From an uncultured Bacteroidales bacterium (lineage in GTDB: Bacteria > Bacteroidota > Bacteroidia > Bacteroidales > VadinHA17): a stretch of DNA of 64,000 nt. Below are positions 34,783 to 61,649 of the stretch, one piece after another (position 1 is the first letter of the stretch; every line of letters starts with the position of its first letter). The stretch lies in contig CAVTDE010000006.1 in NCBI GenBank assembly GCA_963733455.1, positions 218,373 to 282,372 on the forward strand. Reading direction: 5' to 3'. The notes beneath the pieces are model-generated. The model saw nothing but the letters and a program-made list of their open reading frames with translations, was not told where the DNA came from and ran no database searches. Position numbers and translations under genes: made by a program.

Positions 34783-35274
34783 CTAAACTTCAGCAAAGGC
34801 GACAATATAGTTATGTCCGTATTTTTTAGCGCATTTGGGACAGTAAGTGTAGTAGAAATAATACTTTTTGGCCTTTTTATTGGTCTCAGCAAGGTGTTGT
34901 TCGAAATCCTTAAGATATTTCGGGACATGGTTATAGGGTCCATCATAGACTTTGCTTGCAAAATTTCCGGAGAGTTTTACGTTTTCAGCTCCGGGAACTT
35001 CCTTTGTGACATTCATATAAAGCTCACTTTTCCATGGTGAAGGATCGTAAGCCAAGAGAAGGAAATCCTTCTTTTCTGATGCAGCACCTGCATCCTGTGC
35101 TTTTTTCCACATCCTTCCGATGACTTTACCCATCATTGAAGGAAGGGGCATATGTAAAAACTGCGGAAGATAATCCCTGATAAAGGGTTTATCGACCCAA
35201 ACATTTGTTTTGGCATCCCAGGGTTCCGGATTAAATTCCGGGCAACATTCCTGTTCGTTAACTGTGTCGTTCAT
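34783..35274 (-). CDS. Conserved hypothetical protein (GyrI-like small-molecule-binding fold suspected)
   Basis: CCP.F.P..WD N-terminus, KVYDGPY, YYTYCPKCAKKYGHNY.V. Confidence 0.6.
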   Translation of the reverse strand: MNDTVNEQECCPEFNPEPWDAKTNVWVDKPFIRDYLPQFLHMPLPSMMGKVIGRMWKKAQDAGAASEKKDFLLLAYDPSPWKSELYMNVTKEVPGAENVKLSGNFASKVYDGPYNHVPKYLKDFEQHLAETNKKAKKYYFYYTYCPKCAKKYGHNYIVAFAEV

Positions 35275-35374
35275 TTCAGAAAGGTTATGAATGAGGCTGT
35301 AAATTAGACATAATCTTTAAAATATGACTATTAAGGAGTCAGAATTTAGTAAGAAAATCAGGTATAAGCGATGG

Positions 35375-35806
35375 TCAAAGGAAAATAGGAACAGAGAAAA
35401 GAAGCAGCACAACACCTATTGAAGTAATAATAGTAGCGGGCCTTATTTTAAAGTTTTCGACCTTCCAGATGTTCACCATCGGGCAGGAGAGGGTGTGATT
35501 CTCAACTCTGATTGCGGACGGGGGTCCCGCATAGATGTTTATTTTCCGGAGTTTGTTATTCACTACACTTGCAGGATCTACAATTATTCCCGAAAACATA
35601 CCATTTTCGGCAGGGACGGGAAGGACTACCCAAACACTGTCGCCTGAATGAAAGGAATAGATTTTCTTTCCTTTCGGCATATTTGTAACTTGCGACGGAG
35701 TATCAATCAGGGTTGCACAGCCTGTAACAGTAATAAGTGAAAGTATGAAAACTATAAAGAAGGCATATCGCCGAAATAGTTTAAACGTCATACTGAACAG
35801 CTTCAT
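35375..35806 (-). CDS. Hypothetical lipoprotein/membrane protein
   Basis: VTGC lipobox and hydrophobic C-terminus; GTGA/ATGA-type overlap with the upstream gene. Confidence 0.6.
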   Translation of the reverse strand: MKLFSMTFKLFRRYAFFIVFILSLITVTGCATLIDTPSQVTNMPKGKKIYSFHSGDSVWVVLPVPAENGMFSGIIVDPASVVNNKLRKINIYAGPPSAIRVENHTLSCPMVNIWKVENFKIRPATIITSIGVVLLLFSVPIFL

Positions 35807-36159
35807 TCAACAATTTCGGCCTCATCAATCCTGCCGGGCCGGATATTGACACGCCGGCGTTGAACTCTGTTAACACCCTTGCTCCCAAAGAATCCCCAGC
35901 CTCCGCTTCCCAGAAGGAATCCCAGTGCATACAGGCCTCCATTATTGTTTTGGGCGTACATTGTGATCTCGTTGTTAAACAGCATCCCTATAAAATCAAA
36001 AGGAGCAATAAAGCCATGCCACAATCCGCCGAAAAAACCGTATTTATGTCCGCTGAGGCATTGTTCAACTATTTCATTATTAGCACATCCTGTTATAATT
36101 ATAAGCAAGAATAAAGAAATCAGGATCAGAGAATTTTGCGGTGATTTTAGTAGTTTCAT
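35803..36159 (-). CDS. Small conserved hypothetical membrane lipoprotein
   Basis: ITGC lipobox; GFFGGLWHG.IAPF...MYA..NNGG.Y..GFLLG. Start re-assigned to the ATG at 36159. Confidence 0.65.
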   Translation of the reverse strand: MKLLKSPQNSLILISLFLLIIITGCANNEIVEQCLSGHKYGFFGGLWHGFIAPFDFIGMLFNNEITMYAQNNNGGLYALGFLLGSGGWGFFGSKGVNRVQRRRVNIRPGRIDEAEIVE

Positions 36160-36187
36160 TTTGTTTATATTAAGAATTGTATAATTT

Positions 36188-36706
36188 TCAAAACAAGGTT
36201 CCTTCAACAGGTTTTCCGGAATATTTCTTTTCATGATCAATAAGCCATCTTTTCCTTTCGAGGCCTCCTCCATAGCCGGTAAGACTTCCATCGGATCCGA
36301 TCACCCTGTGACAGGGAATCACAATAGCGATTCTGTTGGTACCGTTTGCATTTGCAACTGCCCTGACCAAACCAGGATTATTCAACGATCGCGCCTGTTC
36401 GAGGTAGGAACGCGTTATTCCATAAGGGATATTTCGTAATTCTTTCCAGACAGCCTGTTGAAATTCTGAACCTTTGATCACCAGAGGAACGCTAAACTTC
36501 TTCCGCTTCCCGATAAAATATTCTTTTAACTGTTTCCTTAATCTTCTCAGATGTCTGTTCTCACCGGGTTCCACGGATGTGTTAAATAAAGCAGCAAGTT
36601 TCTCAGATTCAGAATTTGTGCTGAATTCAAGGAGGCAAACCCCGTCCCTGGTAGCTCCAGCTGTCATTTCACCGAGTGGTGTTTCGATTTTCATTAATTT
36701 TATCAT
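36188..36706 (-). CDS. ogt: Methylated-DNA--protein-cysteine S-methyltransferase
   Basis: FQQAVW..L..IPYG, RAVANAN, IPCHRVIG active site, GYGGG..RK.WL. Confidence 0.95.
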   Translation of the reverse strand: MIKLMKIETPLGEMTAGATRDGVCLLEFSTNSESEKLAALFNTSVEPGENRHLRRLRKQLKEYFIGKRKKFSVPLVIKGSEFQQAVWKELRNIPYGITRSYLEQARSLNNPGLVRAVANANGTNRIAIVIPCHRVIGSDGSLTGYGGGLERKRWLIDHEKKYSGKPVEGTLF

Positions 36707-36714
36707 ACCCGATA

Positions 36715-36769
36715 AGCTGTTTCGCTGTTTTGCCGTTACGCCTTTGCGCCTTTGTGCCTTTGTGCCGTT
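36715..36769. repeat. Degenerate 8-bp tandem repeat (GCYKTTNN x7) in the ogt upstream spacer
   Basis: gctgtttc gctgtttt gccgttac gcctttgc gcctttgt gcctttgt gccgttat; reverse complement resembles the 21948 array. Confidence 0.7.
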
Positions 36770-37190
36770 ATTTTCCCAATCTCTCAGAAGTCGATTTGAT
36801 ATACTTTTTATTCCTGAACCTCATTGCTGACCAGTCAGCATCCAAAGAAACCAGACGGATACCATAAAAATCAGACTTATTTAAAGCTTTCCATCCGTGA
36901 TCCCTGTCAATTTCGGAAGTATAGTTCTTTGATGATTTTTTGGGATAACAAAACCACAGGGCACCGTCCGCCACAAGATTATGAAGCGCAATCGGAGCAT
37001 AATGTTCCACCTCGGAAACTTTTCTGACAAAGACTACCATAAAATCGTAAGGGAATCGCTGATCTATGTCATTATCTATTATTACATCCTCGGGATCAAC
37101 AAGAGGGGTGATAGTGAAGTTTGCTTCAACGTTAATCACTGCAATCCTTTTCTGACCTTTGTAACTAAGTTTTTCAAGAAGTGTCTTCAT
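36768..37190 (-). CDS. Conserved hypothetical protein (DUF3052-like)
   Basis: LWFCYPKKSSK...IDRDHGW and VSLD.DWSAMRFR motifs. Confidence 0.7.
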   Translation of the reverse strand: MKTLLEKLSYKGQKRIAVINVEANFTITPLVDPEDVIIDNDIDQRFPYDFMVVFVRKVSEVEHYAPIALHNLVADGALWFCYPKKSSKNYTSEIDRDHGWKALNKSDFYGIRLVSLDADWSAMRFRNKKYIKSTSERLGK

Positions 37191-39883: not shown

Positions 39884-40696
39884 ATGATATATGATTGGTT
39901 ATCAAATAACTGGATCGAAATTTTCGGCGCAGTTACAGGTATAATATATGTATTTCTGGAGATCAGGCAGAAACTCTGGCTCTGGCCTGTCGGTATCGTC
40001 ACATCCGCGGTCTATATCTGGGTTTTCTTCACCGGGAAGCTATATGCCGATATGAGTCTGCAGGGGTATTATCTGGCTATCAGCTGCGTGGGATGGTACT
40101 GGTGGATAAAAGGCACAGGGCGAAGGGCGCAGGGCGCAGGGCGCACAGGGCACAGGGCACAGGGCGCAGGGCACAGGGCGCAGGGCGCAGGGCACAGGGC
40201 GCAGGGCGCAGGGCGCAGGGCACAGGGCGCAGGGCACAGGGCGCAGGGCGCAGGGCACAGGGCGCAGGGCGCAGGGCACAGGGCGCAGGGCGAAGAGCGA
40301 AGGGGAGAGTGGGAGAGGGGGGGCCGACGGGACGAAGAGACGAAGGGAGTGAGAGACGAAGGGACTCAGGGACTGAAAGTGACCAGATTGAAATTCAGGA
40401 CTGGCATAACGCTTGCAGGTATTTTTGTCGTGATTTATGCATTTATCTGGCTTTTCCTTACACGGTTGACCGATTCGCCTGTACCAGTCTGGGATTCATT
40501 TATAACCTCGCTCTCAATTATTGCCACATGGATGCTTGCCCGGAAGATATTTGAGCACTGGTACCTCTGGGTAATTGTCAACGGTGTTTCAATAGCTCTT
40601 TTTATTATAAAAGGTCTTTATCCGACAGTTATCCTGTACATTATCTATTTTATAATGTCTTTTGAAGGGTTGAGGCAATGGAAGCGTTCATTGTAA
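39884..40696 (+). CDS. pnuC: PnuC-family vitamin transporter (PnuT-like, thiamine) with a large in-frame repeat insertion
   Basis: WIEIFGA..G, WLWPVGIV, LYAD..LQ.YY....GWYWW, P.WDSF.T.LS..ATWMLARK..EHW..W. Confidence 0.88.
   Translation: MIYDWLSNNWIEIFGAVTGIIYVFLEIRQKLWLWPVGIVTSAVYIWVFFTGKLYADMSLQGYYLAISCVGWYWWIKGTGRRAQGAGRTGHRAQGAGHRAQGAGHRAQGAGRRAQGAGHRAQGAGHRAQGAGHRAQGEERRGEWERGGRRDEETKGVRDEGTQGLKVTRLKFRTGITLAGIFVVIYAFIWLFLTRLTDSPVPVWDSFITSLSIIATWMLARKIFEHWYLWVIVNGVSIALFIIKGLYPTVILYIIYFIMSFEGLRQWKRSL
40117..40293. repeat. Intragenic 7-bp tandem repeat AGGGC(G/A)(C/A) x25, followed by degenerate GGGAGA/GGGAC octamers to about 40377
   Basis: Counted directly: 4 units, an AC spacer, then 21 units. 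Confidence 0.92.
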
Positions 40697-41641
40697 CGAA
40701 TCACACGAGCATTTTATTTTTTTTTGACTTCTCTGACTAAGGTTTATTTCAATCAGCCTGTTTATGCGCTCATCAAAGCATTTATTGCATTTTGAGAAGA
40801 GTTTCAGATCCCATACATCGGCGAAAACTCTTCCTGCCTTAAGTGCAATTCCATATTCAAGAACCTTTTCAAGCGAGCCAATATCGGGCGGAGTGAAGTA
40901 TCCTTTTTCAAGTAAATGATCCATAGCGCCGTTACCTGCCCTTACAGGGATTATGGTACAGCATCCGACGCCGGCATCGAATGCAAAGTCGACCGACCGC
41001 TCAGCCTGATATACTCCTTCTTCTTCCGATATAAAGGGAGGTTTGAGCAAAATAAATGCCCTGGTCGGGATCCTGTTAATTGTCAGGAAGCTGACTGAGC
41101 TTTTGAAATCATTCAGCGTCATCTTCTTATTAAGCCTCATGAGTACTTCAGGGTTGGCAGTTTCAAGTCCAAGTGCAATTTGCAGGTCCGGCTTAAGCAT
41201 ATCCCTGAACTGCAGGCATCTTTTATTAATAAAATGAGGATGACTTTCGACGATAACTGTTTTGAAGCTGCTTACAAGCGACGCAATTCTTTCATAATCT
41301 CCTCGGGGAATTGCCCTGACATCAAAAAAGCTGCCGCTATTGTAAAGCTTAAGGTGTTTAACATCCGGAAGCTGATCCAGTACCCATTCAATCTGATCCG
41401 GAATAGCACCTTCCGGGACCGTTTTATCAGTTGTATTCCTCCACAGATCACACATCAGGCAATGAAACGGACACTCGCGGTTCGTGAGGAAAATGATAGC
41501 ATAATCTTCAATTTCTCCTGTAATGGTGCGTTCCTTTTCAACTAGCCAGGCATAAGGTCTTTTGGGATTGACACTATTTTTCTTTCCCCGTTTTGAGACA
41601 ATCCATTTGCCGGTGATCTTCAATTCAGGATCTTCACTCAT
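40688..41641 (-). CDS. Radical SAM enzyme, RaSEA/TIGR01210-like
   Basis: CPFHCLMC (CxxxCxxC), KLYNSGSFFD, VESHP, GLETAN, LNKKMT, FILLKPPF: the pattern of the archaeosine RaSEA family. Confidence 0.8.
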   Translation of the reverse strand: MSEDPELKITGKWIVSKRGKKNSVNPKRPYAWLVEKERTITGEIEDYAIIFLTNRECPFHCLMCDLWRNTTDKTVPEGAIPDQIEWVLDQLPDVKHLKLYNSGSFFDVRAIPRGDYERIASLVSSFKTVIVESHPHFINKRCLQFRDMLKPDLQIALGLETANPEVLMRLNKKMTLNDFKSSVSFLTINRIPTRAFILLKPPFISEEEGVYQAERSVDFAFDAGVGCCTIIPVRAGNGAMDHLLEKGYFTPPDIGSLEKVLEYGIALKAGRVFADVWDLKLFSKCNKCFDERINRLIEINLSQRSQKKIKCSCDSLQ

Positions 41642-42962
41642 AAATTGAAAAAAATTCTTTTCGGTAAGCTATCTCTTTTTCGGGGAAAAGTTTATTGAAG
41701 TTACTTTTGGAAACTGCCCCATGCTGAAAGCGATTCTTAGGGAATACGGGCATATCAATTCCCGTAATCGCTTTAACTCCCAGCGATACGATCTGACCTT
41801 TGAGGTCATAAAGCTTTTTAGGATCCCAGCCTGTTATTTCGATAAAGGGAATACCTTCTGATATTTCTATAACATGGGGTGAAGTGTATGGACTGAATAC
41901 TTCAAATCCGAGTGAATCGCCTGGGGCATAGGTTCGCATGTACCCCCTGCTAAGTCCGCCGGTATAAGTCAGCGAGTGCTTTATCGATTCCACACCCCAG
42001 CCTTCATGGTACAGCATAAGATTATTGAGAACGCTTCGTATTGTAAGTTCAGGATTTTCCTCAATCGGATAGTCTTTAAGGTTTTCATCGCCCCCGTCGC
42101 CGTCAAAAATGTATTTCCAGTCAGGATAACGTGACCTGATTGCTTTCAGGAGCGACAGGTTCATTGTTGCTGTTTGTATATCAAGAGGCTTGTAGTCTTC
42201 AATAACTTTTATTGCCTCCTTCCAGTCGAGATCGGAGTATTTTATTTCAACAGGCTCAAGAAATAATTCCATCCCCAGGGCTTCCATAAATTTTCTTGCC
42301 TGGATCAGATCGCTGCCGTCCCCATCAACTGAAAGAGTGAATGCTTTAAGTCTCGAAAGGCTTACACCCAGCTCCCGCAGGGCATGATACGAAAGAAGAA
42401 AGACAGAACCACTGTCGATGCCGGCGGAAAATGTAATACCAACAGGCCCTGTTTTTGCCCGTAATAAAAGCCGTTTTTTGATCTCATTATACACAGCACC
42501 AATATAATTATTAGCTATTTTCTGCAAGTCAGTTTCAGAATACCTGTTACGTTCGGGTTCGAAGAACCGTGTATAGACCGGATTAGGGTCGGGACAGCCA
42601 AGGAGTTCAATTTTTGTAATATAATGGGCAGGTGCCATCCGGGTATAGGATGGGTGAAACTGGTTTTCCATTCCTTCTTTTTTAAGATAATCATAAATCT
42701 TGTCGATACGCTCTGCAATTACCAGTTGGGGCCCTGAAGCCCTTTTTGCAATAAAATAGCGCATCGGACGGCCAATTGATCTTGCCATCCTTATCGTCTT
42801 GCCGTCGACGGAGACTAGTGCAAATTGTCCGTCAATGTTGCGGACTTTTTCTAAATCTCCTGATCTTAAATTGTTTTCCGCCTCCTCCAGGGTCATATTA
42901 TAAATAATATTTTTACCCGGATCCATGAGATTTATTATCTTTTCCAAATACTTATTGTCCAT
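41634..42962 (-). CDS. Asparagine-synthetase-like ATP-dependent amide ligase (N-type ATP pyrophosphatase) without a glutaminase nucleophile
   Basis: FSAGIDSG PP-loop, DGDGGDE, IDGQFA...AR.IGRP remnant of the Ntn domain, K.RFQHG; no N-terminal Cys. Confidence 0.8.
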   Translation of the reverse strand: MDNKYLEKIINLMDPGKNIIYNMTLEEAENNLRSGDLEKVRNIDGQFALVSVDGKTIRMARSIGRPMRYFIAKRASGPQLVIAERIDKIYDYLKKEGMENQFHPSYTRMAPAHYITKIELLGCPDPNPVYTRFFEPERNRYSETDLQKIANNYIGAVYNEIKKRLLLRAKTGPVGITFSAGIDSGSVFLLSYHALRELGVSLSRLKAFTLSVDGDGSDLIQARKFMEALGMELFLEPVEIKYSDLDWKEAIKVIEDYKPLDIQTATMNLSLLKAIRSRYPDWKYIFDGDGGDENLKDYPIEENPELTIRSVLNNLMLYHEGWGVESIKHSLTYTGGLSRGYMRTYAPGDSLGFEVFSPYTSPHVIEISEGIPFIEITGWDPKKLYDLKGQIVSLGVKAITGIDMPVFPKNRFQHGAVSKSNFNKLFPEKEIAYRKEFFSIYE

Positions 42963-48428: not shown

Positions 48429-49577
48429 TTACTTCCCTGTCAGGGCCGGTATCCCATTTTTAATTCTCATCACGCTGAAGTTGTCTGAACGGTTTCCTTT
48501 ACTGTCAAACTTAATATGCCCGGTAATTCCCTCGTAATCAATTTCCGATAAAGCCTTTTGAATTTTTTCGCGATCATTGATCCCCGCGATTCTGATAGCT
48601 TCCGTTAACAGATTCATTCCATCGTAAGCATATGCTGCAACAGCTCCCGGAGTTTCACCAAAAGCTTCGGTGTACTCCTTAATAAAAGATACGGCTTTTG
48701 GAGCTGTCCATTTCCCAGAAGGGATAAGAAGAAGGTCATTGTAAGACTGAATTCCCTGGATTGATAATTCGTCTTCATTGAGTATAAACAACGATCCGAA
48801 AACCGGGATATCCTTATCCTTTTCCCTGATTTGCCTGAATGTTTCAGATGAGGAAACAGGCTTGCAAAACAGAATTATACAGTCGGCGTTTGACCTGAGT
48901 ATCTGAACGGCAATATTATTTGGACCCTGATTATCGTCTTCAATGGTGAATGCGGCAGGGGGTGGCTTTCCTTCATCTCTTACCTTATTAAGAAAACTGT
49001 TAAAGGCAAGCTTTGAGTCATAGTTCTCATTGTATACTATTGCAACAGCAGATAGTTTTCGCTTATTATAAACCTCATCGAACAAAGCCGCAGCCTGTTC
49101 GATAGTATTTGGGACACAGCTGAAATACCACGGGATAAATGCCTGGGAAAGGGTGGGATCGGCGGCCCATGCAGAGAGGAAAACAACATGTGCTTTGGCG
49201 GAAACCTGTTCGACGAGGTGAGCATTGCGGCCATCGTGAGATCCGAGTATCGCCCAGACCTTTTCCTCAAAGACGAGGTTCACAGCCTGTTTCGAACCTG
49301 TTCCCCATGGGCCCTCCATCGATCGGACCACAAGCTGGAATTTATTTCCGTTCATTCCACCGGTTTCATTGGCATTCCGGATCGCAAGTTCTGCTCCATG
49401 CCGGGCTGCGGCTGATTTGGCGTCAGTTATCAGTAATCCGATCTTTATGGGTTGGCCTGAAAGATTTACTGAAATACAGGAATTGATGATAATGATATTG
49501 ATAATGCAAACCTTATGCAGAGCTTTAAATAGTTTATTAAAGAGATACCATTTAACATTCATAAGACCGAAGCACAT
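48429..49577 (-). CDS. LivK/Peripla_BP_6-type periplasmic binding protein
   Basis: IKIGLL...GAELAI..AN..GG.NG, AAYAYDG..LL.EAI, YEGITG.I.FD.KGNR. Start codon uncertain. Confidence 0.82.
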
Positions 49578-50440
49578 GGCAATAAGATCTCCCTTCCGAT
49601 AGCAGAGGCTATTTTCCTGAGATCGTCCATCATAAGATCAAATTCATCAAGGCTAAGCGATTGGGAGCCATCACACAAAGCCTGCTCAGGATTAAAATGG
49701 ACCTCGACAATCAGGCCATCTGCTCCGGCAGCTATTGCCGCTTTAGCCATTGAAGGAACCATCCATCTGAGACCGGTCCCATGACTTGGATCAACTATTA
49801 CGGGAAGATGGGTGAGACTTTTTAGCATGGGAACAGCGCTCAGGTCGAGCGTATTTCTTGTGGAAGTTTCGAAAGTGCGTATGCCCCGTTCACAAAGAAT
49901 AACCTGGTCATTACCCTGATTCAGAATATATTCGGCAGCAAGAAGAAACTCTTCAACAGTTGCCATCATACCCCGTTTGAGTAAGACGGGTTTCCTGCAT
50001 AATCCTGCTTCTTTCAGGAGAGGGTAGTTTTGCATATTTCTTGAACCGATCTGTATCATATCGGCGTACCCGGCCACCAGTTCCACCTTTCTTGTGTCCA
50101 TAACTTCCGTTACAACTGGCATTCCGATCTCTTTTTTAACAATACCGAGTAGTTTTAATCCTTCTTCACCCAAACCCTGAAAGTTATATGGTGATGACCG
50201 GGGTTTAAAAGCTCCTCCCCTGAGTATGCTGGCACCGCTTTTTCTTACACCACGGGCAGTTTCAAAAAGTTGTTCCCTGCTTTCAACTGCACATGGACCA
50301 GCAATTATAACCACCCCGCTACCACCGGCCTCAACTCCGCCAATATTCACAATAGTCGAGTCGGGTCTTGATACGCGGTTCACTCTTTTGGGAATTGGAA
50401 AATCAACATATGCCGGATTACTGCATGAATTTGTATCCAT
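49559..50440 (-). CDS. aroF: 3-deoxy-7-phosphoheptulonate (DAHP) synthase, type I-beta, lacking a regulatory domain
   Basis: [63 protein letters not shown]. Confidence 0.92.
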
Positions 50441-50461
50441 TTTATCCTTTTCTTTATATTA

Positions 50462-51772
50462 TTAGTATTTTGATTTACTGCCCGATTTAAAACTCTGGTC
50501 CAAAGGAGGCGCCGGAGAAAACACAAACTTTCCCTGGCGGACCTCGGCGAGCCAGATATCACCGATATCATTCCAGCTTTTGTCAAAGACGATCCTGCCC
50601 GTAATTCCCTGGTAATTCTGAAAGGTTTTAAGGTCGGAGAGGAGATCCCGAATCAGGACCCGGTTAAGCCCGGCCTTCTTGATTGCCTCTATTATGATAT
50701 TCATACCGTCATATGCGTGGGCCGCGAAAACGTCGGGTTCCTGACCAAATCTCCTTATGTAATCTGCCTGAAATGTTTTAAGTTTAGGATTGTCATCATT
50801 GGGATTATACTGGCATGTAGTAACAATGCCTTCCGCCAGAGGACCCACTATTTTCAGGAATTCAGGCGAGACTATCCTGTCGGAAGCATAGACTGGTTGT
50901 TTAAGTCCCAGGGCACGGATCTGCTGTAAGATCAATCCTGATTCCCTTGCGTTTCCCCAGATAAGGATAGCATCGGGGGAAACTTTTTTTATTCTCTCCA
51001 GCTGATCTCTGAAATCCGATTCGCCATCGTTAAACCTTTCCTCAATTACATAGGGATAACCCATTCGCGTGGCCGCATCGGCATATTCCATGACTCCAAC
51101 CCTCCCGTAGCGGTTGTTTGCCCTGATCATTGCTACTCGTGTATGTCCCTTTTTTTTATGCATGTATTCTCCCAGAACATAACCGCTCTGACGGTCGTCA
51201 CTTATGACCCGGATAGTCCACGGAATGTTGGTCTCAGTAAAGGTGGGATCAGGATCTCCTGTGCAGACCATAAAAATCTCCAGTTTTAGGGCTGCACGTA
51301 ATGCAATATGTGAAACATTATCATCGATAGATCCAAGGAATACCCATACCTTTTCATCGTCCATTTTAACAACTTCATTTGCTGCGGCACCCCATAATCC
51401 GGCATCATTGTGAGGCATTATTTTGAACGGAAGTCCCTTGTAGCCCCCCTTCCTATTTGCTTCTTCCACTGCAAGAGTAGCTCCCTGAAACATTTGTTTG
51501 CCCTGTGGTACCAGCACCGAGTTTGTCAATGGCCCGAGAAACCCTATTCTGACTTCCGTAAGATCTTTTGGCGGCTTTTTCTCTCGTCCCGCTCCATAAA
51601 ACAGAATAGGTTCAAGAAAATGATATCTGTATGCTTTCTGATATTTCTCATACGGGAAGAGCTCATCAGGTGCTTTGCCATAATTCACTTTCTTTTCCTG
51701 TCCTTTAAGAATGGCAAGAGACAGAAAAATTGTGCATGCTGTAACTGTTAAGGATCTGAAATTAAGTTTCAT
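50462..51772 (-). CDS. LivK/Peripla_BP_6-type periplasmic binding protein
   Basis: RIGFLGPL...GATLAVEEAN.KGG, AAHAYDGM, YQGITGRIVFD; signal peptide. Confidence 0.85.
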   Translation of the reverse strand: MKLNFRSLTVTACTIFLSLAILKGQEKKVNYGKAPDELFPYEKYQKAYRYHFLEPILFYGAGREKKPPKDLTEVRIGFLGPLTNSVLVPQGKQMFQGATLAVEEANRKGGYKGLPFKIMPHNDAGLWGAAANEVVKMDDEKVWVFLGSIDDNVSHIALRAALKLEIFMVCTGDPDPTFTETNIPWTIRVISDDRQSGYVLGEYMHKKKGHTRVAMIRANNRYGRVGVMEYADAATRMGYPYVIEERFNDGESDFRDQLERIKKVSPDAILIWGNARESGLILQQIRALGLKQPVYASDRIVSPEFLKIVGPLAEGIVTTCQYNPNDDNPKLKTFQADYIRRFGQEPDVFAAHAYDGMNIIIEAIKKAGLNRVLIRDLLSDLKTFQNYQGITGRIVFDKSWNDIGDIWLAEVRQGKFVFSPAPPLDQSFKSGSKSKY

Positions 51773-51776
51773 GGCT

Positions 51777-52985
51777 TTACAAGTTTGATTTCAGCAATTC
51801 ACCGCGGCTTACACCCCTGGAAGTAGCCACCCACAGCACATCATCTTTGGCATCAACACCAATTGTAAAATTATGTGAGATCGAAGGAGATAAAGTTATC
51901 TCTTTTACATCCGTTCCTCTGGTGATTATCGCTTTACCATTTTCATCATTATCATTTTTCTTATATGTGACCCATGTCTCGCCATCGGTGCTGCTTAATC
52001 CGTTGTCGCTGCAGACAAATACCACCGGGCCTTCGGCTCTTATAAAATTTATGAAATTGCTCGCAAGGCCACTGTCCTCCTTGAAGTAGCCTCTCCAGTT
52101 CTTGCCATCGTACCGGCTCATGCCAAAATAAGTAGAAACCCACAGAATGCTGTCGGCCCATGATGTTGCTGTAGTTATATCGTGAACAAGGCCGTCATCG
52201 CGCAGCAGGTCTATCTCCATTTCACCATCGGGGTCAGTATAATCCCTGAATTTTTTAGTTTCTGTGGTATACTCAATTACTCCGCCGCCCCAGGCAGCGA
52301 TGAAAATCTTTCCACCTCCCGCCGATACACCGTATGTCCATGGTTCATGCATCGGAGCGTTTTTTTCGGTGAAAATTTCCCATTCATTAGTGAAAGTGTC
52401 CAGATGACCGGCACCTCCGGCTGTAGCAACCCAGACATCTTTCCCGTCGCAGATAACGCAATATACCAGGTCGTTGGGAAGTCCGCTGTTGAATTGATTA
52501 TACGTTGTGAATTTCCCGGAAGACCACTTTGTCAGACCCCCAAACGTTCCGAGCCACACATCACCTGTCAGTTCACTTACATCGATAGAGACTATTCCGT
52601 TATGAGCAAGGCCATCATTGGTAGTGTAGGTTCGCCATTTCCCATTTTCGTAAACAGCCAGGCCGTCGTGGGTTCCTGCCAGAACACGATCACCGTCTAT
52701 CCTTACAGCATAAGCTTTATCGGAAGGGAGACCGTCTTTTGTTGTAAAGTTGCGCCAGTGCCCATAAACAGGTACTCCTTTGGACTTAATTCCAGAATTC
52801 TTACTGATGGGGGCATTCTGGTCGTTTTCATTTGAAGAAGTCAGGGAGGATCTTTCATTTATCCTTCTCTTACCGGCAGCTGAAGAATAGACTTTGCTTA
52901 CCAGTATCCCGACAACACAAATTACAAGCAGCAAAACCAGTATTATTGTACTTCGAACAGTTCTTCTATAAAAAAATTTATTCAT
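51777..52985 (-). CDS. Exported beta-propeller protein (two-component-regulator propeller repeats), stand-alone
   Basis: Repeated W..FTT.DGL.SD/HN...vW.gT.gGl blades; N-terminal TM/signal; no kinase domain. Confidence 0.78.
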   Translation of the reverse strand: MNKFFYRRTVRSTIILVLLLVICVVGILVSKVYSSAAGKRRINERSSLTSSNENDQNAPISKNSGIKSKGVPVYGHWRNFTTKDGLPSDKAYAVRIDGDRVLAGTHDGLAVYENGKWRTYTTNDGLAHNGIVSIDVSELTGDVWLGTFGGLTKWSSGKFTTYNQFNSGLPNDLVYCVICDGKDVWVATAGGAGHLDTFTNEWEIFTEKNAPMHEPWTYGVSAGGGKIFIAAWGGGVIEYTTETKKFRDYTDPDGEMEIDLLRDDGLVHDITTATSWADSILWVSTYFGMSRYDGKNWRGYFKEDSGLASNFINFIRAEGPVVFVCSDNGLSSTDGETWVTYKKNDNDENGKAIITRGTDVKEITLSPSISHNFTIGVDAKDDVLWVATSRGVSRGELLKSNL

Positions 52986-52996
52986 GGTCGTCCTGG

Positions 52997-55033
52997 TTAG
53001 TGTGAGGCGAATTTTGCCTGATATTTTTCTTTAGGGTCCTTATAATATTCCGGTCCGCTTAATGTTTTAAGGTACTCTACCAGCTGGTTAAGTTCAATCT
53101 TGGTAAGATCATTTGCCACACCATGCTTATCTTCAGGACTGTACTTTGTCCAGATTTCTTCCAGCGACTCAGCACGCCCGTCATGAAGGTAGGGTGAAGA
53201 GGCATAGATATTGTTCAGATGCGGTGTATCTAACAGCATTGAATCGTCGGATGCTGCAAGCGTTCCCACATCCGCCATTTTCAAATTGGTATAGTATGGT
53301 GGAGGATGACAGGTAATACAACGGTTTGAAGGAGGAATGATGTTGCCTCTGGTATCAGTTGTGCGTTCAAATATTGCTTTGCCTTTAAGCTGCATTTCTG
53401 TTAATTCACCGGTTGGGTTATACTGAAGATTAGGAGGATAATAAACATCCCTCATGATATAAGCCACAATTGCATCCAGATCCTTATAATTAAAGGCTTC
53501 GGTCCTGGTCAGAACTGTTGAAAAACGGATCCCGTCCTGCCTGTACACAGTCTGGTTTTTACCACTCCATTTGTATGGAGGAGTATCGCCAATTTCCCTT
53601 AACGATTGGGTATTCGTAATATTACGGCCCATATCCTTTGAAGCCATATTATAAACCAGGCCATCTTCATGAGTGTCGGGATGACATGTACTACATGAAT
53701 ACTGGGTCTGGAAAGTATGACCGGCATTGTTAAAGAGTCTGCGTCCCTGCCTGAAAACTGTTATCCTGCGCGGTCCGCCCAGATCAATGGTGTTTACTGT
53801 TTTAAGGCTTTGTGTGTTTATAACTGCTATCCTGTCCTCTAGATGTTCAGCAACGTATAACAATTTTCCGTCAGGTGATAGTGCAAGTCCTTTGGGATTC
53901 GCTCCCGTTGGAATTCTGGCAATAACGTACATGCTGCTTATCCCCAGATGATTAGGGTAAGTCTTGAGTGTGCCGGGGGTAGAATTGCTTATTAATTTTC
54001 TGACTGAATCGATATCAACTACGGAGATAACGTTTACGCCAGAATTTGATATAAAAGCCTTCTTCCCGTCAGGTGTGATCACAACATCGTAGGGATCGGA
54101 GTAATATGCATTTGGCTCATCAAGTAACAACTGAATTAATCTTCCATTTTCCTTTTGTTCAGCTATACAAATACCGTGAGTCATCATCCACCCACGTTCC
54201 ACCTGAATTGTCGGGATCAGGTTCTTCGGACGGATCATGGTCACAAATGCCAGGTCACCCTCCGGAGTGAAACTGACGTTTTCCATCATATATACGGATT
54301 CCACATCCCTGCGTTCAGTTACTCTCTGGTTCGTGTCACTGATAAATGTAAGTTCGCTTTTCAGTGGTTCACCATAAGGAGCAAAATTTGCGCGTCTGCT
54401 TGTTACTATCAGAGCTTTTCCGTCGGGAGACAACCGGATACCTGTGGGGTTATTGCCAAGGGTGATCCTTTTACTTTCTTCTCCGGTTTGAAGGTTAATA
54501 ACGGAAAGGTTTGAAGAGTAGGAATTTACCGTGTAAAGCGATTTTCCGTCTGTGCTTAATGCCAGACCTGCCGGGCCTCCGGCAGTTTTCAGGGAATCAG
54601 TTACTTTCAGCTGTTCCAGATCAATGACTGACACATTATCAGACCATTGGTTGCTGACATAAGCAAACTTCTCATCCTTACTCAGGATAACCCTGTAAGG
54701 ATGCTTCCCGACCTGAATTTTATGGATAACCTTATTTGCCCTTGTATCCGCAATCAGCAGAACATCACCCTCTTCGGCAACTATATACAGTTTAGATCCG
54801 TCTTTTGATACCGCTAAATTAAACGGAGAATAATAACCGGCTTCTGTAAACTTCCGGATTAACCTGTTTTTGCTTATATAAAGATGACATGAAAGGCAAT
54901 TTAACGGGTGATCCGTAACACCTGTCTTTGAATAAATATGTTCACCTGCCAGCTTACGTCCGGGGAAATGAATAAACAGCCCCACTGCAAAAAGTAAAGC
55001 AACACCCAATAATATTATATAAGGCCTCTTCAT
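52997..55033 (-). CDS. YVTN beta-propeller fused to a dihaem cytochrome c peroxidase/MauG-like domain (HzsB-HzsC-like architecture), three CxxCH motifs
   Basis: CLSCH near the N-terminus; YVTN blades (P.glalspDGk.lYv); CSTCHPD, NTQSL..I.DTPPYKWSG, CITCH, TPHL.NI....PYLHDG.A.SLEE. Confidence 0.82.
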   Translation of the reverse strand: MKRPYIILLGVALLFAVGLFIHFPGRKLAGEHIYSKTGVTDHPLNCLSCHLYISKNRLIRKFTEAGYYSPFNLAVSKDGSKLYIVAEEGDVLLIADTRANKVIHKIQVGKHPYRVILSKDEKFAYVSNQWSDNVSVIDLEQLKVTDSLKTAGGPAGLALSTDGKSLYTVNSYSSNLSVINLQTGEESKRITLGNNPTGIRLSPDGKALIVTSRRANFAPYGEPLKSELTFISDTNQRVTERRDVESVYMMENVSFTPEGDLAFVTMIRPKNLIPTIQVERGWMMTHGICIAEQKENGRLIQLLLDEPNAYYSDPYDVVITPDGKKAFISNSGVNVISVVDIDSVRKLISNSTPGTLKTYPNHLGISSMYVIARIPTGANPKGLALSPDGKLLYVAEHLEDRIAVINTQSLKTVNTIDLGGPRRITVFRQGRRLFNNAGHTFQTQYSCSTCHPDTHEDGLVYNMASKDMGRNITNTQSLREIGDTPPYKWSGKNQTVYRQDGIRFSTVLTRTEAFNYKDLDAIVAYIMRDVYYPPNLQYNPTGELTEMQLKGKAIFERTTDTRGNIIPPSNRCITCHPPPYYTNLKMADVGTLAASDDSMLLDTPHLNNIYASSPYLHDGRAESLEEIWTKYSPEDKHGVANDLTKIELNQLVEYLKTLSGPEYYKDPKEKYQAKFASH

Positions 55034-55036
55034 TTC

Positions 55037-56473
55037 TTATTCCAGTTCTATCTCCTTTTCATTCAGTTTTGATTTGTGCACAGGTATCACATGAGGAGGT
55101 TTACTTACTGAAAGGCAGTACCTGTTATCAGGAGCCAGCTCCTGATCTTCATGACAACCTGCACAGCCCCTTCGCTCATTTGGCCGTAAATAAATCCAGT
55201 CACAGGGTCCGTTAAGGACATTCCCCTTATCATCAATAGTTTGTATCCTGAACGGAATATCTGCCAGTACTTTTAAATAGAACGAACCATCAGTTTCAAC
55301 GTGGACGGTGCCAAGTAATGAATCAATTCCGATAACCTCAATCCGTGAAGCTTTTGGGACTGAAGTTCCCTCTGTAGCTGATCCGTTTGAACGGGAATTC
55401 ATGTCCTGGCATAGCAATAAGCCTGTTTTAACTCCCATATCAACTTCACTGGGTAGTTTCCTGGGCCGTTCATAAGTTTGAACCACGACAGCTTCAACCA
55501 CATCATAATCCGGATTATCATAAATCATCCCGGAAGTGACCTGTTTACCTCTGTCAAATTCATAAAGTGAATAATGATCTGAATCAGCGGGTTTGTAAGA
55601 GACCAGTAACCTCGTCGTATCAACAGGAAAAACATCCAGAAAGGTGCCTTTAAGTGCGTTGGTAAGATTGACCCTTGAATGCAACGGCCTTTTATAATTT
55701 ATAGATATTACATTTCCTTTGTCCTGGTTTATGGGATCTGATTCTATAAAAACCACTTTGCCATCGGGTGTTTCCCGGACACGGTTTAGCAGAACATTTC
55801 TTTCATGGCTTTTATAGAACATCTCCGCCTTTGTTCCATCGGGTCGCATCACTGTCAGAATGGCGTCTCCCTTCTCAGGGATCACTGGTCTGTCGATACA
55901 AACGATACGTCCGTCCTTTAAAATATCCGAGGCAAAATATACATCCGGAGTGAAAGAGATCTGATTAAGTCCTGACCCGTCAAGATTAATTGTACAAAGA
56001 GAATGCGTGGTTTTTAAAGTATCATTGTCTGTAAATTTACTGAATACAATCTTACCGCCGGGCAGGTAAGCAGGATCGATGCAGTTTTCAGTTGTTGTGG
56101 TTACCTGCCGTATAGAAGCATCCTTTAAATTCATTTCCCATATCTGCCATGGATCATTTTCAGTCTTTTGCCCGGCAAACAATAACCTCTTGGCATCCCA
56201 TGAGACTTCAGGCGACCGGGCGGAAAAGAAATCTCCGGAAATCACCTTGATTGATTTCACGGGGTTTTTAGGATCAAATGCAATTATTTGTGACTCAGGA
56301 ATATACCTCCATAAATCGCCTGTTATAAAGTTTTTAATCCCCATTTTCCCTCTGACCTGTGTCAAAATGATCTCCCCCTGGGTAATCCCTCTGGTGCATG
56401 ATGGAAGGAAGTATCCTGAAGCGACAAGACTTAATATGATAGAAAATAGGTTAAACTGTTTCCTGAATCTCAT
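55037..56473 (-). CDS. Hydrazine synthase alpha-subunit-like lipoprotein (TolB-like propeller plus HZS_alpha middle domain, one CxxCH)
   Basis: LPSC lipobox; PEVSWDAK.LLF, WQIWEM, DPAYLP.G.IVF, PDGTK blades; DGSFYLKV.ADIPFRIQTID..G...W.YLRPNERRGCAGCHE. Confidence 0.8.
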   Translation of the reverse strand: MRFRKQFNLFSIILSLVASGYFLPSCTRGITQGEIILTQVRGKMGIKNFITGDLWRYIPESQIIAFDPKNPVKSIKVISGDFFSARSPEVSWDAKRLLFAGQKTENDPWQIWEMNLKDASIRQVTTTTENCIDPAYLPGGKIVFSKFTDNDTLKTTHSLCTINLDGSGLNQISFTPDVYFASDILKDGRIVCIDRPVIPEKGDAILTVMRPDGTKAEMFYKSHERNVLLNRVRETPDGKVVFIESDPINQDKGNVISINYKRPLHSRVNLTNALKGTFLDVFPVDTTRLLVSYKPADSDHYSLYEFDRGKQVTSGMIYDNPDYDVVEAVVVQTYERPRKLPSEVDMGVKTGLLLCQDMNSRSNGSATEGTSVPKASRIEVIGIDSLLGTVHVETDGSFYLKVLADIPFRIQTIDDKGNVLNGPCDWIYLRPNERRGCAGCHEDQELAPDNRYCLSVSKPPHVIPVHKSKLNEKEIELE

Positions 56474-56485
56474 AAAAGGTTCATT

Positions 56486-58183
56486 TTAAGGTTCCCTGAC
56501 AGTAAGAATCTGGTTAGCACTGACATTTTCCAATACCTGAGTTTTGCCTGAAGGCCATTTTATTTCGATCTTATCTGCCATTACGTTTTTAGCGAGGCCG
56601 AAGTGTATCCTTGGATCATTCTGGGAGAGGTAGCCTGTCGTACTTCTTTTCTGGGTGGTCTGGGTTTTGCCTCCGGCGGTAAGTTTCACCCTTGCGCCGA
56701 TGCCGTCACGGTTACTTGTTTGTCCGACAAGATTAAGGATCAGCCAGTTATTTTGATTGCCCTTATTGTTTCTCAGGAACACAGCCTGGTCATTAAGATT
56801 CACAATAAAAGCATCAATATCGCCATCGTTGTCATAATCACCAAAACATGCCCCGCGTCCTACAAATTCTTTATCAAAATACCTTCCTCTTTCCCCTGAA
56901 ACATCCTTGAATTGTCCGTCCCCCATATTCTCGAATATCTGATCTTCCTGACCGTACAGGTGCTTCAGCGCTCCATTGGTTTTAAAGATATCAGGATCAC
57001 CGTCATTATCGTAGTCAATAAATGAGGAGGACCAGCCAACAAACTGTCCGGCAGCCATTGCGATGCCGGAAGGGTATGATTTATCACTGAAAACGCCATT
57101 CCCCAGATTCTCATACAGCGAACAGTATGAATCATCGGAAACGAAAAGATCCAGTAACCCGTCTGCATTGAAATCAGCAAAATCTACTGACATACTGATT
57201 GTAGCTTCCCCTGCCTGGCTGAATGCTGTTCCCGACATTGTTCCCCTGTCGGAGAATCCCTTACCCCCGTCGTTGTGCCAGAGGTAATTCAGTGAATGAT
57301 CATTTGCAACAAAAACATCTGTAAAACCATCGTTGTCATAATCAGCTGCTCCGACACCCATTGCCCTTCCGTCAATATCGGTGATCCCCATGGTTGAGGT
57401 GACATCTTCAAACAAACCATTCCCTTTGTTGTGATATAAAACATCCTTCTGGCTGTCATATGCCATCGGGCCCGGGAAACCGTCGGGGGCATAATAATAT
57501 TTGTATTGCGGATCAAAATAAAGGTAATTGCCAACGTACAGGTCGAGCAGTCCGTCATTATCATAATCAAACCAGGCAGCACCAACACTGCATTCATTTC
57601 CTCCGCTGACACCTGCGCGTTTTGTTACGTCCGAAAAGGTTCCGTTTCCGTTATTCTTTAACAAAATATTAGGGCCATAATTACTTATGTACAGATCGGG
57701 GAAACCATCATTGTTAAAATCACCTGCTGTCACGCCCATACCATATCCATGTCCGGCTGCACCTGCTTTCACTGTAACATCTTCAAAGGTTCCATCCTGA
57801 CGGTTATGATAAAGATGGTTATGAGGCAATTCTTCGGGCTTCTCGCCTTTACTGAATCCATCCAGCCATGTACCACTGCATGCATAGATGTCAATGTACC
57901 CGTCCTGGTCATAATCAAAAAAAGCCGCACCACCACCAACTGATTCTACGATGTTATTAAGATCCTTGTCCCCGATAGAGTGAACAAAATCCAGGCCGAT
58001 TGCCTGGCTGATTTCCTGAAAAAAATCATTATTTGCCACCGGGGCAGAGGCTGATTGTGGTTTTTTTACATTAGATGAATCATTTCCGGACTTGCATCCC
58101 GGAAGTATCAGAATAAGAACGAGAAGGAACTGTATGTGCCTGTACCCATTCCTTCTAAAGTAATTATTAAATTGTATACTCAT
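56486..58183 (-). CDS. CRTAC1-family FG-GAP repeat lipoprotein with ASPIC/UnbV domain
   Basis: LPGC lipobox, DYDNDG repeats, NRDGIGARV...GYLSQNDPRIHFGL...I.WPSG. Start moved to the ATG at 58183 because a -7 box overlaps the ORF-track start. Confidence 0.88.
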   Translation of the reverse strand: MSIQFNNYFRRNGYRHIQFLLVLILILPGCKSGNDSSNVKKPQSASAPVANNDFFQEISQAIGLDFVHSIGDKDLNNIVESVGGGAAFFDYDQDGYIDIYACSGTWLDGFSKGEKPEELPHNHLYHNRQDGTFEDVTVKAGAAGHGYGMGVTAGDFNNDGFPDLYISNYGPNILLKNNGNGTFSDVTKRAGVSGGNECSVGAAWFDYDNDGLLDLYVGNYLYFDPQYKYYYAPDGFPGPMAYDSQKDVLYHNKGNGLFEDVTSTMGITDIDGRAMGVGAADYDNDGFTDVFVANDHSLNYLWHNDGGKGFSDRGTMSGTAFSQAGEATISMSVDFADFNADGLLDLFVSDDSYCSLYENLGNGVFSDKSYPSGIAMAAGQFVGWSSSFIDYDNDGDPDIFKTNGALKHLYGQEDQIFENMGDGQFKDVSGERGRYFDKEFVGRGACFGDYDNDGDIDAFIVNLNDQAVFLRNNKGNQNNWLILNLVGQTSNRDGIGARVKLTAGGKTQTTQKRSTTGYLSQNDPRIHFGLAKNVMADKIEIKWPSGKTQVLENVSANQILTVREP

Positions 58184-58207
58184 AGCAATTGGGTTCAGCA
58201 AAGGATG

Positions 58208-58246
58208 CAAATATAAAGATAATCTGACTTCAATGTAACAAAGTTA
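58208..58246 (-). promoter_or_regulatory. Candidate promoter of the minus-strand cluster: two TAnnTTTG boxes in the divergent spacer
   Basis: The reverse strand reads TAACTTTG (58246-58239) and TATATTTG (58215-58208). Confidence 0.5.
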
Positions 58247-61300: not shown

Positions 61301-61613
61301 TAATGCAAATGCTAAGCTCCCTTTGGCTGACGTTAATACTGTAAGTCAATATCCGTCCACAGCATTCCTGGAAAATGGTTCATTCCTTCGGTTAAAAACC
61401 CTGCAGTTAGGTTATAGTTTGCCGAAGAATATCAGCCAGCAACTGAACATAACAGGAGTTGAGATCTTTGTTGAGGGAACTAACCTGTTCACTATCACCA
61501 GGTATAAAGGACTCGATCCTGAACTTGCAATCGGAGGGGTTGACCTTGGGGTTGATGATGGTCAGTGGCCAACTGCACGGCAGTTTGTTGTCGGAATCAG
61601 GCTTGATATTTAG
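58308..61613 (+). CDS. susC: SusC/RagA-family TonB-dependent transporter
   Basis: PLFVIDG, IESLTVLKDASSAAIYGARGANGVILITTK, R.DGSSRFG..NRWG.FP, ENGSFLRLK. The start may be the ATG at 58350. Confidence 0.95.
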   Translation: MKYFLKTKPKFIKSMTKNFALVVSLLPQFKKLTLTLKVITMLLAFCTIQISASTNSGGIVSSDDLQKKTVSGHVTDAAGTALVGVNVIEKGTVNGTVTDVSGKYSLNVTSEKSVLTFSFIGYTTQDVIAGAGATLDIVLAESLSALEEIVVVGYSTQVRKSLTGAVTTISAEAMAKETTANAITRLQGKASGVNILNAKAPGGGANITIRGLGTINNNSPLFVIDGVPTKSSMSELNPDEIESLTVLKDASSAAIYGARGANGVILITTKRGAAGKPKVSFSARYGSSKFSKYYNLLNTQEYGELLWLEAKNQGIAPSNILYGTGSTPVIPDYIVPAGKMEGDPLVNAALYNHTPGSGFYNITKANKQGTDWYATILQPGIMNEYNLSLSGGSEKGTYAFTAGYYTEKGIVKYTGFDRYSLRANSDTRLTDWLSIGQSLGLTYSVGHGNRDENGEGIPISQAYRMQPIVPVYDIAGNFAGTKATGTGNGENPLAMLFRDRDDISHNLRGIGNAFAEIQILKGLRFKSLFGFDYRPYDSKDIFRQNPEFQESKPTDILNMYSGSTTQWNWANTLNFTRVIGANHTVNLLLGSEAVSVRSFDMSASRSTYFSDDVNYMYLNSGEKDQTNGGGGSAVKWMSYFGRLNYNYKDKYLAEATFRRDGSSRFGVNNRWGNFPAVSAGWRISEESFMANAKNFINNLKIRAGWGKSGNDEIGNYNGFSTYGSNSESSFYSINGSVSSATAGFYASALGNPNARWETTSTTNVGLDVAVLNNNLSATIDVWQRKTIDMLFQLAIPNVSGAASAPSVNIGDMNNKGFDLNITYQNKSMGGELTYSAGLTLSHYKNKIVKLSNKETEFINGSDFRQMTYTRATKGTSFPEFYGLIVDGYFATQEEADAYAPEYGGTYNLAGHFKFRDVNNDGVVNNDDRTYIGSPHPKFTAGLNADVAYKGFSLSAFFYTVYGNKIANYVSRWIDYTQFTGNRTKDRLYNSWGSPYLTNNANAKLPLADVNTVSQYPSTAFLENGSFLRLKTLQLGYSLPKNISQQLNITGVEIFVEGTNLFTITRYKGLDPELAIGGVDLGVDDGQWPTARQFVVGIRLDI

Positions 61614-61649
61614 GCAAATTGATGTGATGAAATGTTAAAAAATTAAAAT

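Follow-up and report, generated by a model that had tools for sequence, protein, structure and literature searches.

What would a bacterium accomplish with an AsnB-like ligase devoid of a glutaminase and a radical S-adenosylmethionine (SAM) enzyme encoded in overlapping genes? This question is raised by a locus of an uncultured Bacteroidales bacterium of the VadinHA17 lineage, located in the 64,000-nucleotide stretch analyzed here (contig CAVTDE010000006.1, positions 218,373 to 282,372), hereafter called the window. On its minus strand, the ligase gene (P0001, 41634..42962) codes for an AsnB-like adenylating amide synthetase of 442 residues with the AsnB fold, and the radical SAM gene (P0002, 40688..41641) codes for a protein of 317 residues from the RaSEA/Elp3/queuine-lyase branch. 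An initial annotation, made from the sequence alone, regarded both genes as a coupled module for ligate-then-cleave nitrogen transfer to a metabolite, a protein, or an RNA. The comparison of genomes and metagenomes presented here points to a cytoplasmic module that could serve one exported protein family, either through the synthesis of a ligand or cofactor or through the modification of the protein chain, and we give this answer slightly less than an even chance of being correct.

Conservation of the ligase and radical SAM gene pair

The two genes share 8 nt (41634..41641, minus strand), a stretch comprising the codons at which the radical SAM gene starts and the ligase gene stops. It appears as tcactcat on the plus strand and as ATGAGTGA on the minus strand, with the radical SAM ATG at 41641-41639 and the ligase TGA at 41636-41634, just as the initial annotation had described it. 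This geometry was followed in the close loci, which are the best 80 of 246 genome-contig stretches encoding a relative. Alignments reach both gene ends in 67 of these 80 loci, and the same 8-nt overlap is kept in 66 of them, so it is not a product of chance.

Among the scored candidates, 7963 of 8000 pass as relatives of the radical SAM enzyme and 8000 of 8000 as relatives of the ligase. The best 120 relatives are 68-80% identical, belong mostly to Bacteroidales and to metagenome-assembled genomes of Bacteroidota, and bear the names "asparagine synthase" or "archaeosine synthase beta-subunit". Also, a library built at 50% identity contains 323 radical SAM representatives at E≤1e-30.

In all 80 close loci, the ligase gene lies directly upstream of the radical SAM gene on the same strand. 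The same order is found in the 20 distant loci that were fetched, all of them having a ligase (55-61% identity) upstream of a radical SAM gene (39-54% identity) on the same strand. Moreover, distant representatives (alignment A3) were used to scan metagenomes, which gave 571 relatives among 598 matched stretches. The best 80 were kept, and where at least 1400 nt are available upstream, the ligase gene is there, in the same order and on the same strand, in 46 of 46 loci. In a sample of 401 genomes across the phylum (E≤1e-10 for the radical SAM enzyme and E≤1e-20 for the ligase), every one of the 24 genomes positive for the ligase also belongs to the 25 positive for the radical SAM enzyme. The odd genome, G129, has a weak radical SAM match of 31% identity and no ligase. 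The genome of the window holds one copy of each gene. The coupling proposed in the initial annotation is therefore borne out by co-occurrence everywhere examined, and a failure of the two genes to co-occur elsewhere, which would have spoken against it, was not encountered.

A cultured carrier of the pair is Lutibacter citreus (locus L058). As for the phyla of the distant representatives, the Atlas labels Acidobacteriota, Myxococcota, and Pseudomonadota serve as leads only. No conserved small open reading frame (ORF) and no additional conserved gene was found between or beside the module genes in the 20 distant loci, and no conserved transporter was found around them. Some individual loci do present insertions. 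For example, two small ORFs separate the ligase and radical SAM genes of L114 (10438-10842, minus strand), the module being otherwise intact, and from their sequences these ORFs look like a PIN-domain toxin-antitoxin pair. In L108, an SMR-type transporter-like ORF (9081-9461, minus strand) lies between the radical SAM gene and the halogenase-family gene described below, and in L112, L113, and L116 an opposite-strand Wzi-like gene is inserted.

A complex prediction for the ligase and the radical SAM enzyme scored 0.00 and was counted neither way. A scan for sigma-70 promoters and terminators gave no clear excess over shuffled sequences, being uninformative for this kind of organism. Also, a search of sequencing runs gave no RNA run, and the DNA runs found contained small shares only.

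Co-occurrence with an exported TPR/FG-GAP/ASPIC protein

In the window, the pair closes a tight array. The gene of P0004 (44825..48403, minus strand, 1192 residues) overlaps that of P0003 (42972..44828, minus strand, an ORF of 618 residues) by 4 nt, and P0003 stops 9 nt ahead of the ligase gene. P0004 is an exported CRTAC1-like protein with a lipoprotein-type signal (…FIFSC), TPR repeats, FG-GAP repeats, a UnbV_ASPIC domain, and a unique, conserved C-terminal region of about 440 residues that matches no family and for which sequence searches of the PDB and searches of the Atlas returned nothing informative. The paralogues of P0004 in its own genome match only residues ~296-744, corresponding to the repeat region, whereas the relatives located beside the enzyme genes in remote loci align from residue 19/34 to 1175/1185 with 40-59% identity. 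The enzyme-adjacent relatives are therefore true counterparts of P0004, as opposed to CRTAC1-like genes at large. An alignment of nine of these relatives shows many invariant positions in the C-terminal domain.

P0003 carries FG-GAP and UnbV_ASPIC domains. In 72 of the 80 close loci, the gene immediately upstream of the pair encodes a P0003 homologue (identity of at least 67%), with P0004 homologues beyond it; of the other eight, six have not enough flank and two have only weak matches elsewhere. In its longest ORF, P0003 has about 66 additional residues before a typical signal peptide (MKLKLITLLCLLFILIPSIASA), and homologues align only from residue ~85, so its true start is probably an internal Met near residue 67.

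The neighborhood is also recognizable at a larger distance. For example, in G007, a relative at the class level, a P0004 homologue (41% identity, residues 19-1185) abuts a three-gene module formed by the pair and the halogenase-family gene. In 45 metagenome loci, 1500 nt or more are available beyond the module; an FG-GAP/ASPIC gene occurs in 24 of them, and in 13 of these 45 the gene is of the P0004 type including the C-terminal domain (40-59% identity), most of the 13 lying about 100 nt after the third gene and convergent with it.

The association does not depend on proximity. When residues 752-1192 of P0004, its C-terminal domain, served as the query, 10 module-bearing genomes belonging to 10 genera gave one match apiece (36-53% identity). 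In a sample of 181 genomes, this domain and the ligase occur in the same 10 genomes (7 genera) and neither of them occurs in the remaining 171. Moreover, four further pair-bearing genomes from other genera also carry the domain. In G036, G003, G344, and G116, the pair and the P0004-type locus either lie over 700 kb from each other or are placed on separate contigs, so the link is not mere physical hitch-hiking. A link of the pair to ASPIC genes in general was tried as well and is weaker: at least five PF07593 matches are found in all 24 module genomes, but also in 33 of the 377 other genomes.

A library representative, P0354 (896 residues, 35% identity to the radical SAM enzyme), runs without a stop codon into a protein with a lipoprotein-type signal and FG-GAP/UnbV_ASPIC domains. 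This fusion could be a read-through, a lost stop, or a merge made in gene calling.

A third enzyme in other lineages and its possible substrate

A halogenase-family gene coding for about 500 residues comes after the radical SAM gene in 19 of the 20 distant loci (in L110 it was found through tblastn), the locus without it being L121 from genome G208. The same gene is present in 36 of the 40 metagenome loci having at least 1600 nt downstream. The relatives exceed the threshold of the Pfam family Trp_halogenase (PF04820), with 44.6-62.2 bits versus 21, and their nearest solved relatives are the phenol halogenase PltM (2.9e-36), the tetracycline 7-halogenase (1.4e-32), and CmlS. As for the canonical halogenase motif, W-x-W followed by L-R/H/Q/G-F is present in 18 of 18 clustered members and GxGxxG in 17 of 18. 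Members of the flavin-dependent halogenase family use O2. The third enzyme points to an electron-rich aromatic substrate, which it would either halogenate or hydroxylate.

No homologue of this enzyme was found in the window, in the 80 close loci, or in the whole genome of the window. Four metagenome loci also lack the gene, and three of these (L200, L207, and L211) are the closest to the window, their radical SAM enzymes being 55-62% identical, so the loss is a trait of the window's clade. The third enzyme is an ancestral member of the module, lost in this clade; that the clade replaces or omits the step is speculation.

The solved relatives bring forward an alternative in which the module is a self-contained small-molecule pathway leading to an aromatic amide, which would be halogenated or hydroxylated in lineages having the third enzyme, with the link to the propeller protein being only ecological or ancestral. 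Both PltM and the tetracycline 7-halogenase use free aromatics, and the search for a precursor peptide found none. Also, the array of the window includes a true 3-deoxy-D-arabino-heptulosonate 7-phosphate (DAHP) synthase, a stand-alone enzyme (49559-50440, minus strand; NF006421, 445.8 versus 335 bits) placed between two orphan solute-binding proteins. Since the genome also has, by tblastn, two other members of this family, C5 (34% identity) and C9 (27% identity, with a KdsA-like look), the sequence comparison suggests that the cluster enzyme may be a dedicated paralogue. However, none of the 20 distant and 80 metagenome loci yielded the DAHP synthase, and the neighborhood of the module shows no conserved transporter, regulator, or tailoring gene. 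Moreover, a ligase 55-61% identical across classes is unusually conserved for secondary metabolism, and the co-occurrence with the P0004 domain, 10/10 versus 0/171, holds even with the loci far apart. On balance, a pathway of this kind appears unlikely.

An AsnB-type ligase without the glutaminase

The ligase begins with MDNKY, and its first cysteine is C123, the N-terminal domain being shortened and without the Cys nucleophile. The PP-loop SAGIDS occupies residues 179-184 and the DGDGGDENL motif residues 286-294. Among 22 aligned family members, a conserved N-terminal Cys is absent and S179, G181, I182, D183, and S184 are invariant, together with G288, G290, G291, D292, E293, and N294. The Pfam family Asn_synthase (PF00733) matches residues 171-304 only (40.2 bits versus a cut-off of 21), and TIGR01536 reaches 44.1 bits versus an equivalog cut-off of 267.1. 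Because this last match spans only model positions 171-372, the glutaminase half is left unmatched. The enzyme then has a synthetase domain with the PP-loop SxGxDS, and it has neither the Cys of an Ntn glutaminase nor a TIGR01536 score of equivalog level, in agreement with the glutaminase-less AsnB-like ligase, with SAGIDS and no N-terminal Cys, that had been annotated at first. Plain asparagine synthesis was considered as its role and rejected: the genome holds two canonical AsnB genes elsewhere, both over the TIGR01536 cut-off (506.9 and 478.2 bits), so asparagine would not be needed from this gene.

An AlphaFold model built from the 22-sequence alignment (predicted local distance difference test, pLDDT, of 84.4) matches in Foldseek the human asparagine synthetase ASNS (7.8e-13) and the beta-lactam synthetase (2e-12), followed by TsnB9, E. 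coli AsnB, and carbapenam synthetase, the matches extending over ~410-480 columns and covering both domains. At the sequence level, a search of the PDB with the ligase gave no match at E≤1. The best-conserved stretch of the family, residues 294-333 (YPIEENPELT...YHEGWGV...KHSLTY; about 41964-42083 in the window), is also the sole part of the model with a pLDDT below 50. According to the model, this family-specific element may be a lid or an interface without a counterpart in the solved relatives.

Known AsnB relatives without a glutaminase draw on free ammonia or on the amine within their own substrate. The ligase shares with this family, which includes beta-lactam and carbapenam synthetases, TsnB9, lasso cyclases, C-terminal amidases of RiPPs (peptides made ribosomally and then modified), and PesC, the fold of both domains (Foldseek 2e-12 to 5e-10), the intact PP-loop, and the lack of a Cys nucleophile. 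PesC, a nitrile synthetase (PMC13060819), is one such glutaminase-less case and illustrates that AsnB-family enzymes can act on peptide carboxylates. However, the ligase studied here differs from these enzymes in its much shorter N-domain, in the lack of any PDB sequence match at that threshold, in residues 294-333, which have no confident counterpart in the model, and in its constant partner, a radical SAM enzyme. Also, in contrast to lasso-peptide cyclase systems, the 20 distant loci gave neither an adjacent precursor peptide nor a leader protease.

The radical SAM enzyme and the nitrogen transfer hypothesis

The CxxxCxxC motif of the radical SAM enzyme is CPFHCLMC (C57, C61, and C64), and its three cysteines are invariant across 57 aligned family sequences. 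A second group of cysteines, C285-x2-C288 and C311-x-C313, forms the additional C-terminal CxxC...CxC (residues 285-313), so both motifs noted in the initial annotation are present. The C-terminal Cys4 occurs in most of the 57 representatives; as about 6-7 of them are without it, a structural metal site is more probable than an obligatory second Fe-S cluster. The Pfam family Radical_SAM (PF04055) is matched below its threshold (19.7 versus 29.5 bits), membership in the superfamily being given by CxxxCxxC and a partial TIM-barrel fold. The model obtained from the 57-sequence alignment (pLDDT 95.7) resembles the radical SAM domain of Elp3 (Foldseek 4.4e-9), queuine lyase (PDB code: 6p78; 8.4e-8), and MiaB, and generic radical SAM enzymes such as HydE and pyruvate formate-lyase activase score nearly as well. 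Queuine lyase 6p78, which is also a radical C-N lyase, is the best solved relative by sequence (7.4e-5).

Among curated families, RaSEA (TIGR01210, an NCBIfam equivalog) is the closest and the only one that matches lengthwise, covering model positions 6-295 of 313 with 111.3 bits (E 5e-32), and two distant family members score 97.9 and 81.5 bits. However, the cut-off is 212.15 bits, and the identity as a RaSEA orthologue was consequently rejected. Moreover, no ArcTGT over the cut-off is found in the genome, the sole TIGR00432 match (114.7 versus 350 bits) having a score that fits an ordinary bacterial Tgt; ArcS was not searched. The likeness to RaSEA reported initially thus stands as a closest-family relationship and not as membership.

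These data bear directly on the ligate-then-cleave chemistry, in which the ligase would attach an amine donor to an adenylated carboxylate and the radical SAM enzyme would then cleave the C-N bond of the donor, leaving the nitrogen on the product. This chemistry agrees with the lengthwise match to RaSEA, with the nearest solved sequence being a radical C-N lyase, and with a ligase without glutaminase, for which the nitrogen must have another source. In the ArcS-RaSEA complex (PMC11298593), a group-transfer enzyme and a radical SAM enzyme work as a two-enzyme unit, and ArcS is active only in complex with RaSEA; here too a two-enzyme unit with a radical SAM member is found, and its genes overlap. 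However, the TIGR01210 score is half of the family cut-off, and ArcS, of the TGT/PUA type, is unrelated to AsnB-type enzymes, the partner in this case being an ATP-dependent ligase of the AsnB fold. The host is bacterial, not a member of the Euryarchaeota, and lacks ArcTGT over the cut-off, and its system goes along with an exported protein and, in most cases, with a halogenase-family enzyme, which ligate-then-cleave would not require. Also, the known glutaminase-less AsnB relatives need no cleavage step. The nitrogen transfer is then neither refuted nor specifically supported, and we regard it as distinctly unlikely, noting that it could hold together with the P0004 link.

A further alternative arises from the same relatives, Elp3, MiaB, and RaSEA, namely that the module is a modification system for RNA (tRNA or rRNA). 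The best folds correspond to the tRNA-modifying Elp3 (at 4.4e-9), to MiaB, and to queuine lyase, and the closest curated family is a tRNA enzyme, but these Foldseek scores are barely above those of the generic radical SAM enzymes. Moreover, the ligase and radical SAM families are both acidic (median isoelectric point of 5.8), the module is patchy, being present in only 24 of the 401 genomes of the phylum, its distribution tracks an exported protein family, and its partner enzyme comes from the halogenase family. RNA, included at first among the possible targets, is thus disfavored, and we consider such a system very improbable.

A proposed cytoplasmic module for an exported protein

The proposal that the module serves an exported protein family builds on the observed gene structure, folds, intact motifs, strict adjacency, and co-occurrence, and from these a tentative chemistry, substrate, and direction of the link to P0004 can be formulated. 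The ligase and the radical SAM enzyme would be the invariant core of the cytoplasmic module. The ligase, with its intact ATP/PP-loop site, would most likely adenylate a carboxylate and join it to an amine, giving an amide or a lactam, and the radical SAM enzyme, produced in step with the ligase, would carry out radical chemistry on that substrate. Most lineages have a third enzyme after these two, from the flavin-dependent halogenase family. The outcome would be either a small amino-acid-derived ligand or cofactor for the P0004-type protein or a modification of the P0004-type chain before its export.

Several observations weigh against this proposal. No substrate was found, and neither a conserved small ORF nor a conserved transporter accompanies the module. 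The Sec/lipoprotein-type signal of P0004 implies that a cytoplasmic modification must act on the unfolded chain, and the nearest solved relatives of the halogenase-family enzyme act on free small molecules, so a metabolite would fit better than a protein as the substrate. For the organism of the window, an aromatic substrate would be deduced from relatives only, its own genome being without the third enzyme. Also, two of five ASPIC-rich genomes without the pair (G284 and G304) still carry the P0004-type domain, so the P0004-type protein is not strictly dependent on the module. Finally, the 10 co-occurring genomes come from 7 genera and, being related, do not count as independent cases, so shared ancestry inflates the association.

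A more specific form of the same proposal is that the module is the maturation or biosynthesis machinery for a new cofactor or covalent modification of a widespread family of exported CRTAC1-like propeller proteins, to which we would grant only a minor chance. In the maturation of periplasmic quinoproteins, a cytoplasmic radical SAM enzyme and a flavoprotein serve an exported protein, as occurs with QhpD/QhpG for the cysteine tryptophylquinone (CTQ) of quinohemoprotein amine dehydrogenase (QHNDH), with LodB/GoxB, and with PqqE for pyrroloquinoline quinone (PQQ). The third enzyme has weak matches to QhpG, LodB, and GoxB, far below their cut-offs. However, true halogenases are its far closer relatives, and a SPASM domain is missing from the radical SAM enzyme. 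Moreover, to our knowledge, an AsnB-type ligase takes part in none of the QHNDH, LodB/GoxB, and PQQ systems, and we know of no modified residue or cofactor in CRTAC1-like proteins.

Genomic surroundings of the module

Upstream of P0004, seven genes (48429..58210, minus strand) extend the array and are lineage-specific, being outside the conserved module. From the 5′ end, they encode an FG-GAP/ASPIC protein, a protein like the alpha subunit of hydrazine synthase (HZS), an HZS beta-gamma-like propeller/cytochrome c protein, a Reg_prop protein, a solute-binding protein, the DAHP synthase, and a second solute-binding protein. The HZS assignments are similarities only, both matches being far below the cut-offs (245.5 versus 1250 bits for beta-gamma and 128.1 versus 800 bits for alpha). 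The 20 distant and the 80 metagenome loci yielded none of the seven genes, so the junction of the pair with the HZS-like cluster is a trait of the clade. HZS-like genes as a general partner of the pair were likewise rejected: HZS_alpha is present in 26 of the 401 genomes and in only 3 of the 24 pair-bearing ones (G000, G200, and a weak match in G076).

The gene order upstream is that of the clade III clusters of HZS homologues described by Hagglund et al. 2025 (PMC12758564), which comprise, in this order, an FG-GAP protein, an alpha homologue, a beta-gamma homologue, and two solute-binding proteins. The terms radical SAM and asparagine synthase have 0 occurrences each in its main text. The distribution of HZS_alpha among the pair-bearing genomes shows that the pair is not part of that system.

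At the other end of the array, a convergent gene for a PnuC-type nicotinamide riboside transporter (39884-40696, plus strand) overlaps the 3′ end of the radical SAM gene by 9 nt (40688-40696), which leaves no space for a terminator between both genes. Diverging from the start of the eleven-gene array, after a gap of 97 nt, are the genes of a SusC-like TonB-dependent receptor (1101 residues) and a SusD-family protein (585 residues; 58308-63407, plus strand). Among the small genes located downstream of the TonB receptor/PnuC pair (34783-37190, minus strand) are those for a Bact_hydrolase family protein (34783-35274) and an O6-methylguanine-DNA methyltransferase (36188-36706), and three ORFs there match no Pfam family.

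Implications for CRTAC1-like proteins

Both enzyme superfamilies are well studied, and their combination is new to the literature searched, in which no paper describing the ligase/radical SAM pair was found within the collection covered. The database labels carried by the close relatives, "asparagine synthase" and "archaeosine synthase beta-subunit", are both wrong. The near-perfect co-occurrence with the exported TPR/FG-GAP/ASPIC protein gives this orphan enzyme pair a concrete, testable partner and, conversely, constitutes the first functional lead for bacterial CRTAC1-like proteins. If the reading as a cofactor or covalent modification system were true, the module would stand beside the PQQ and CTQ systems as a new counterpart and would offer the first biochemical handle on the CRTAC1-like proteins, which have no assigned function, and on the ASPIC domain.

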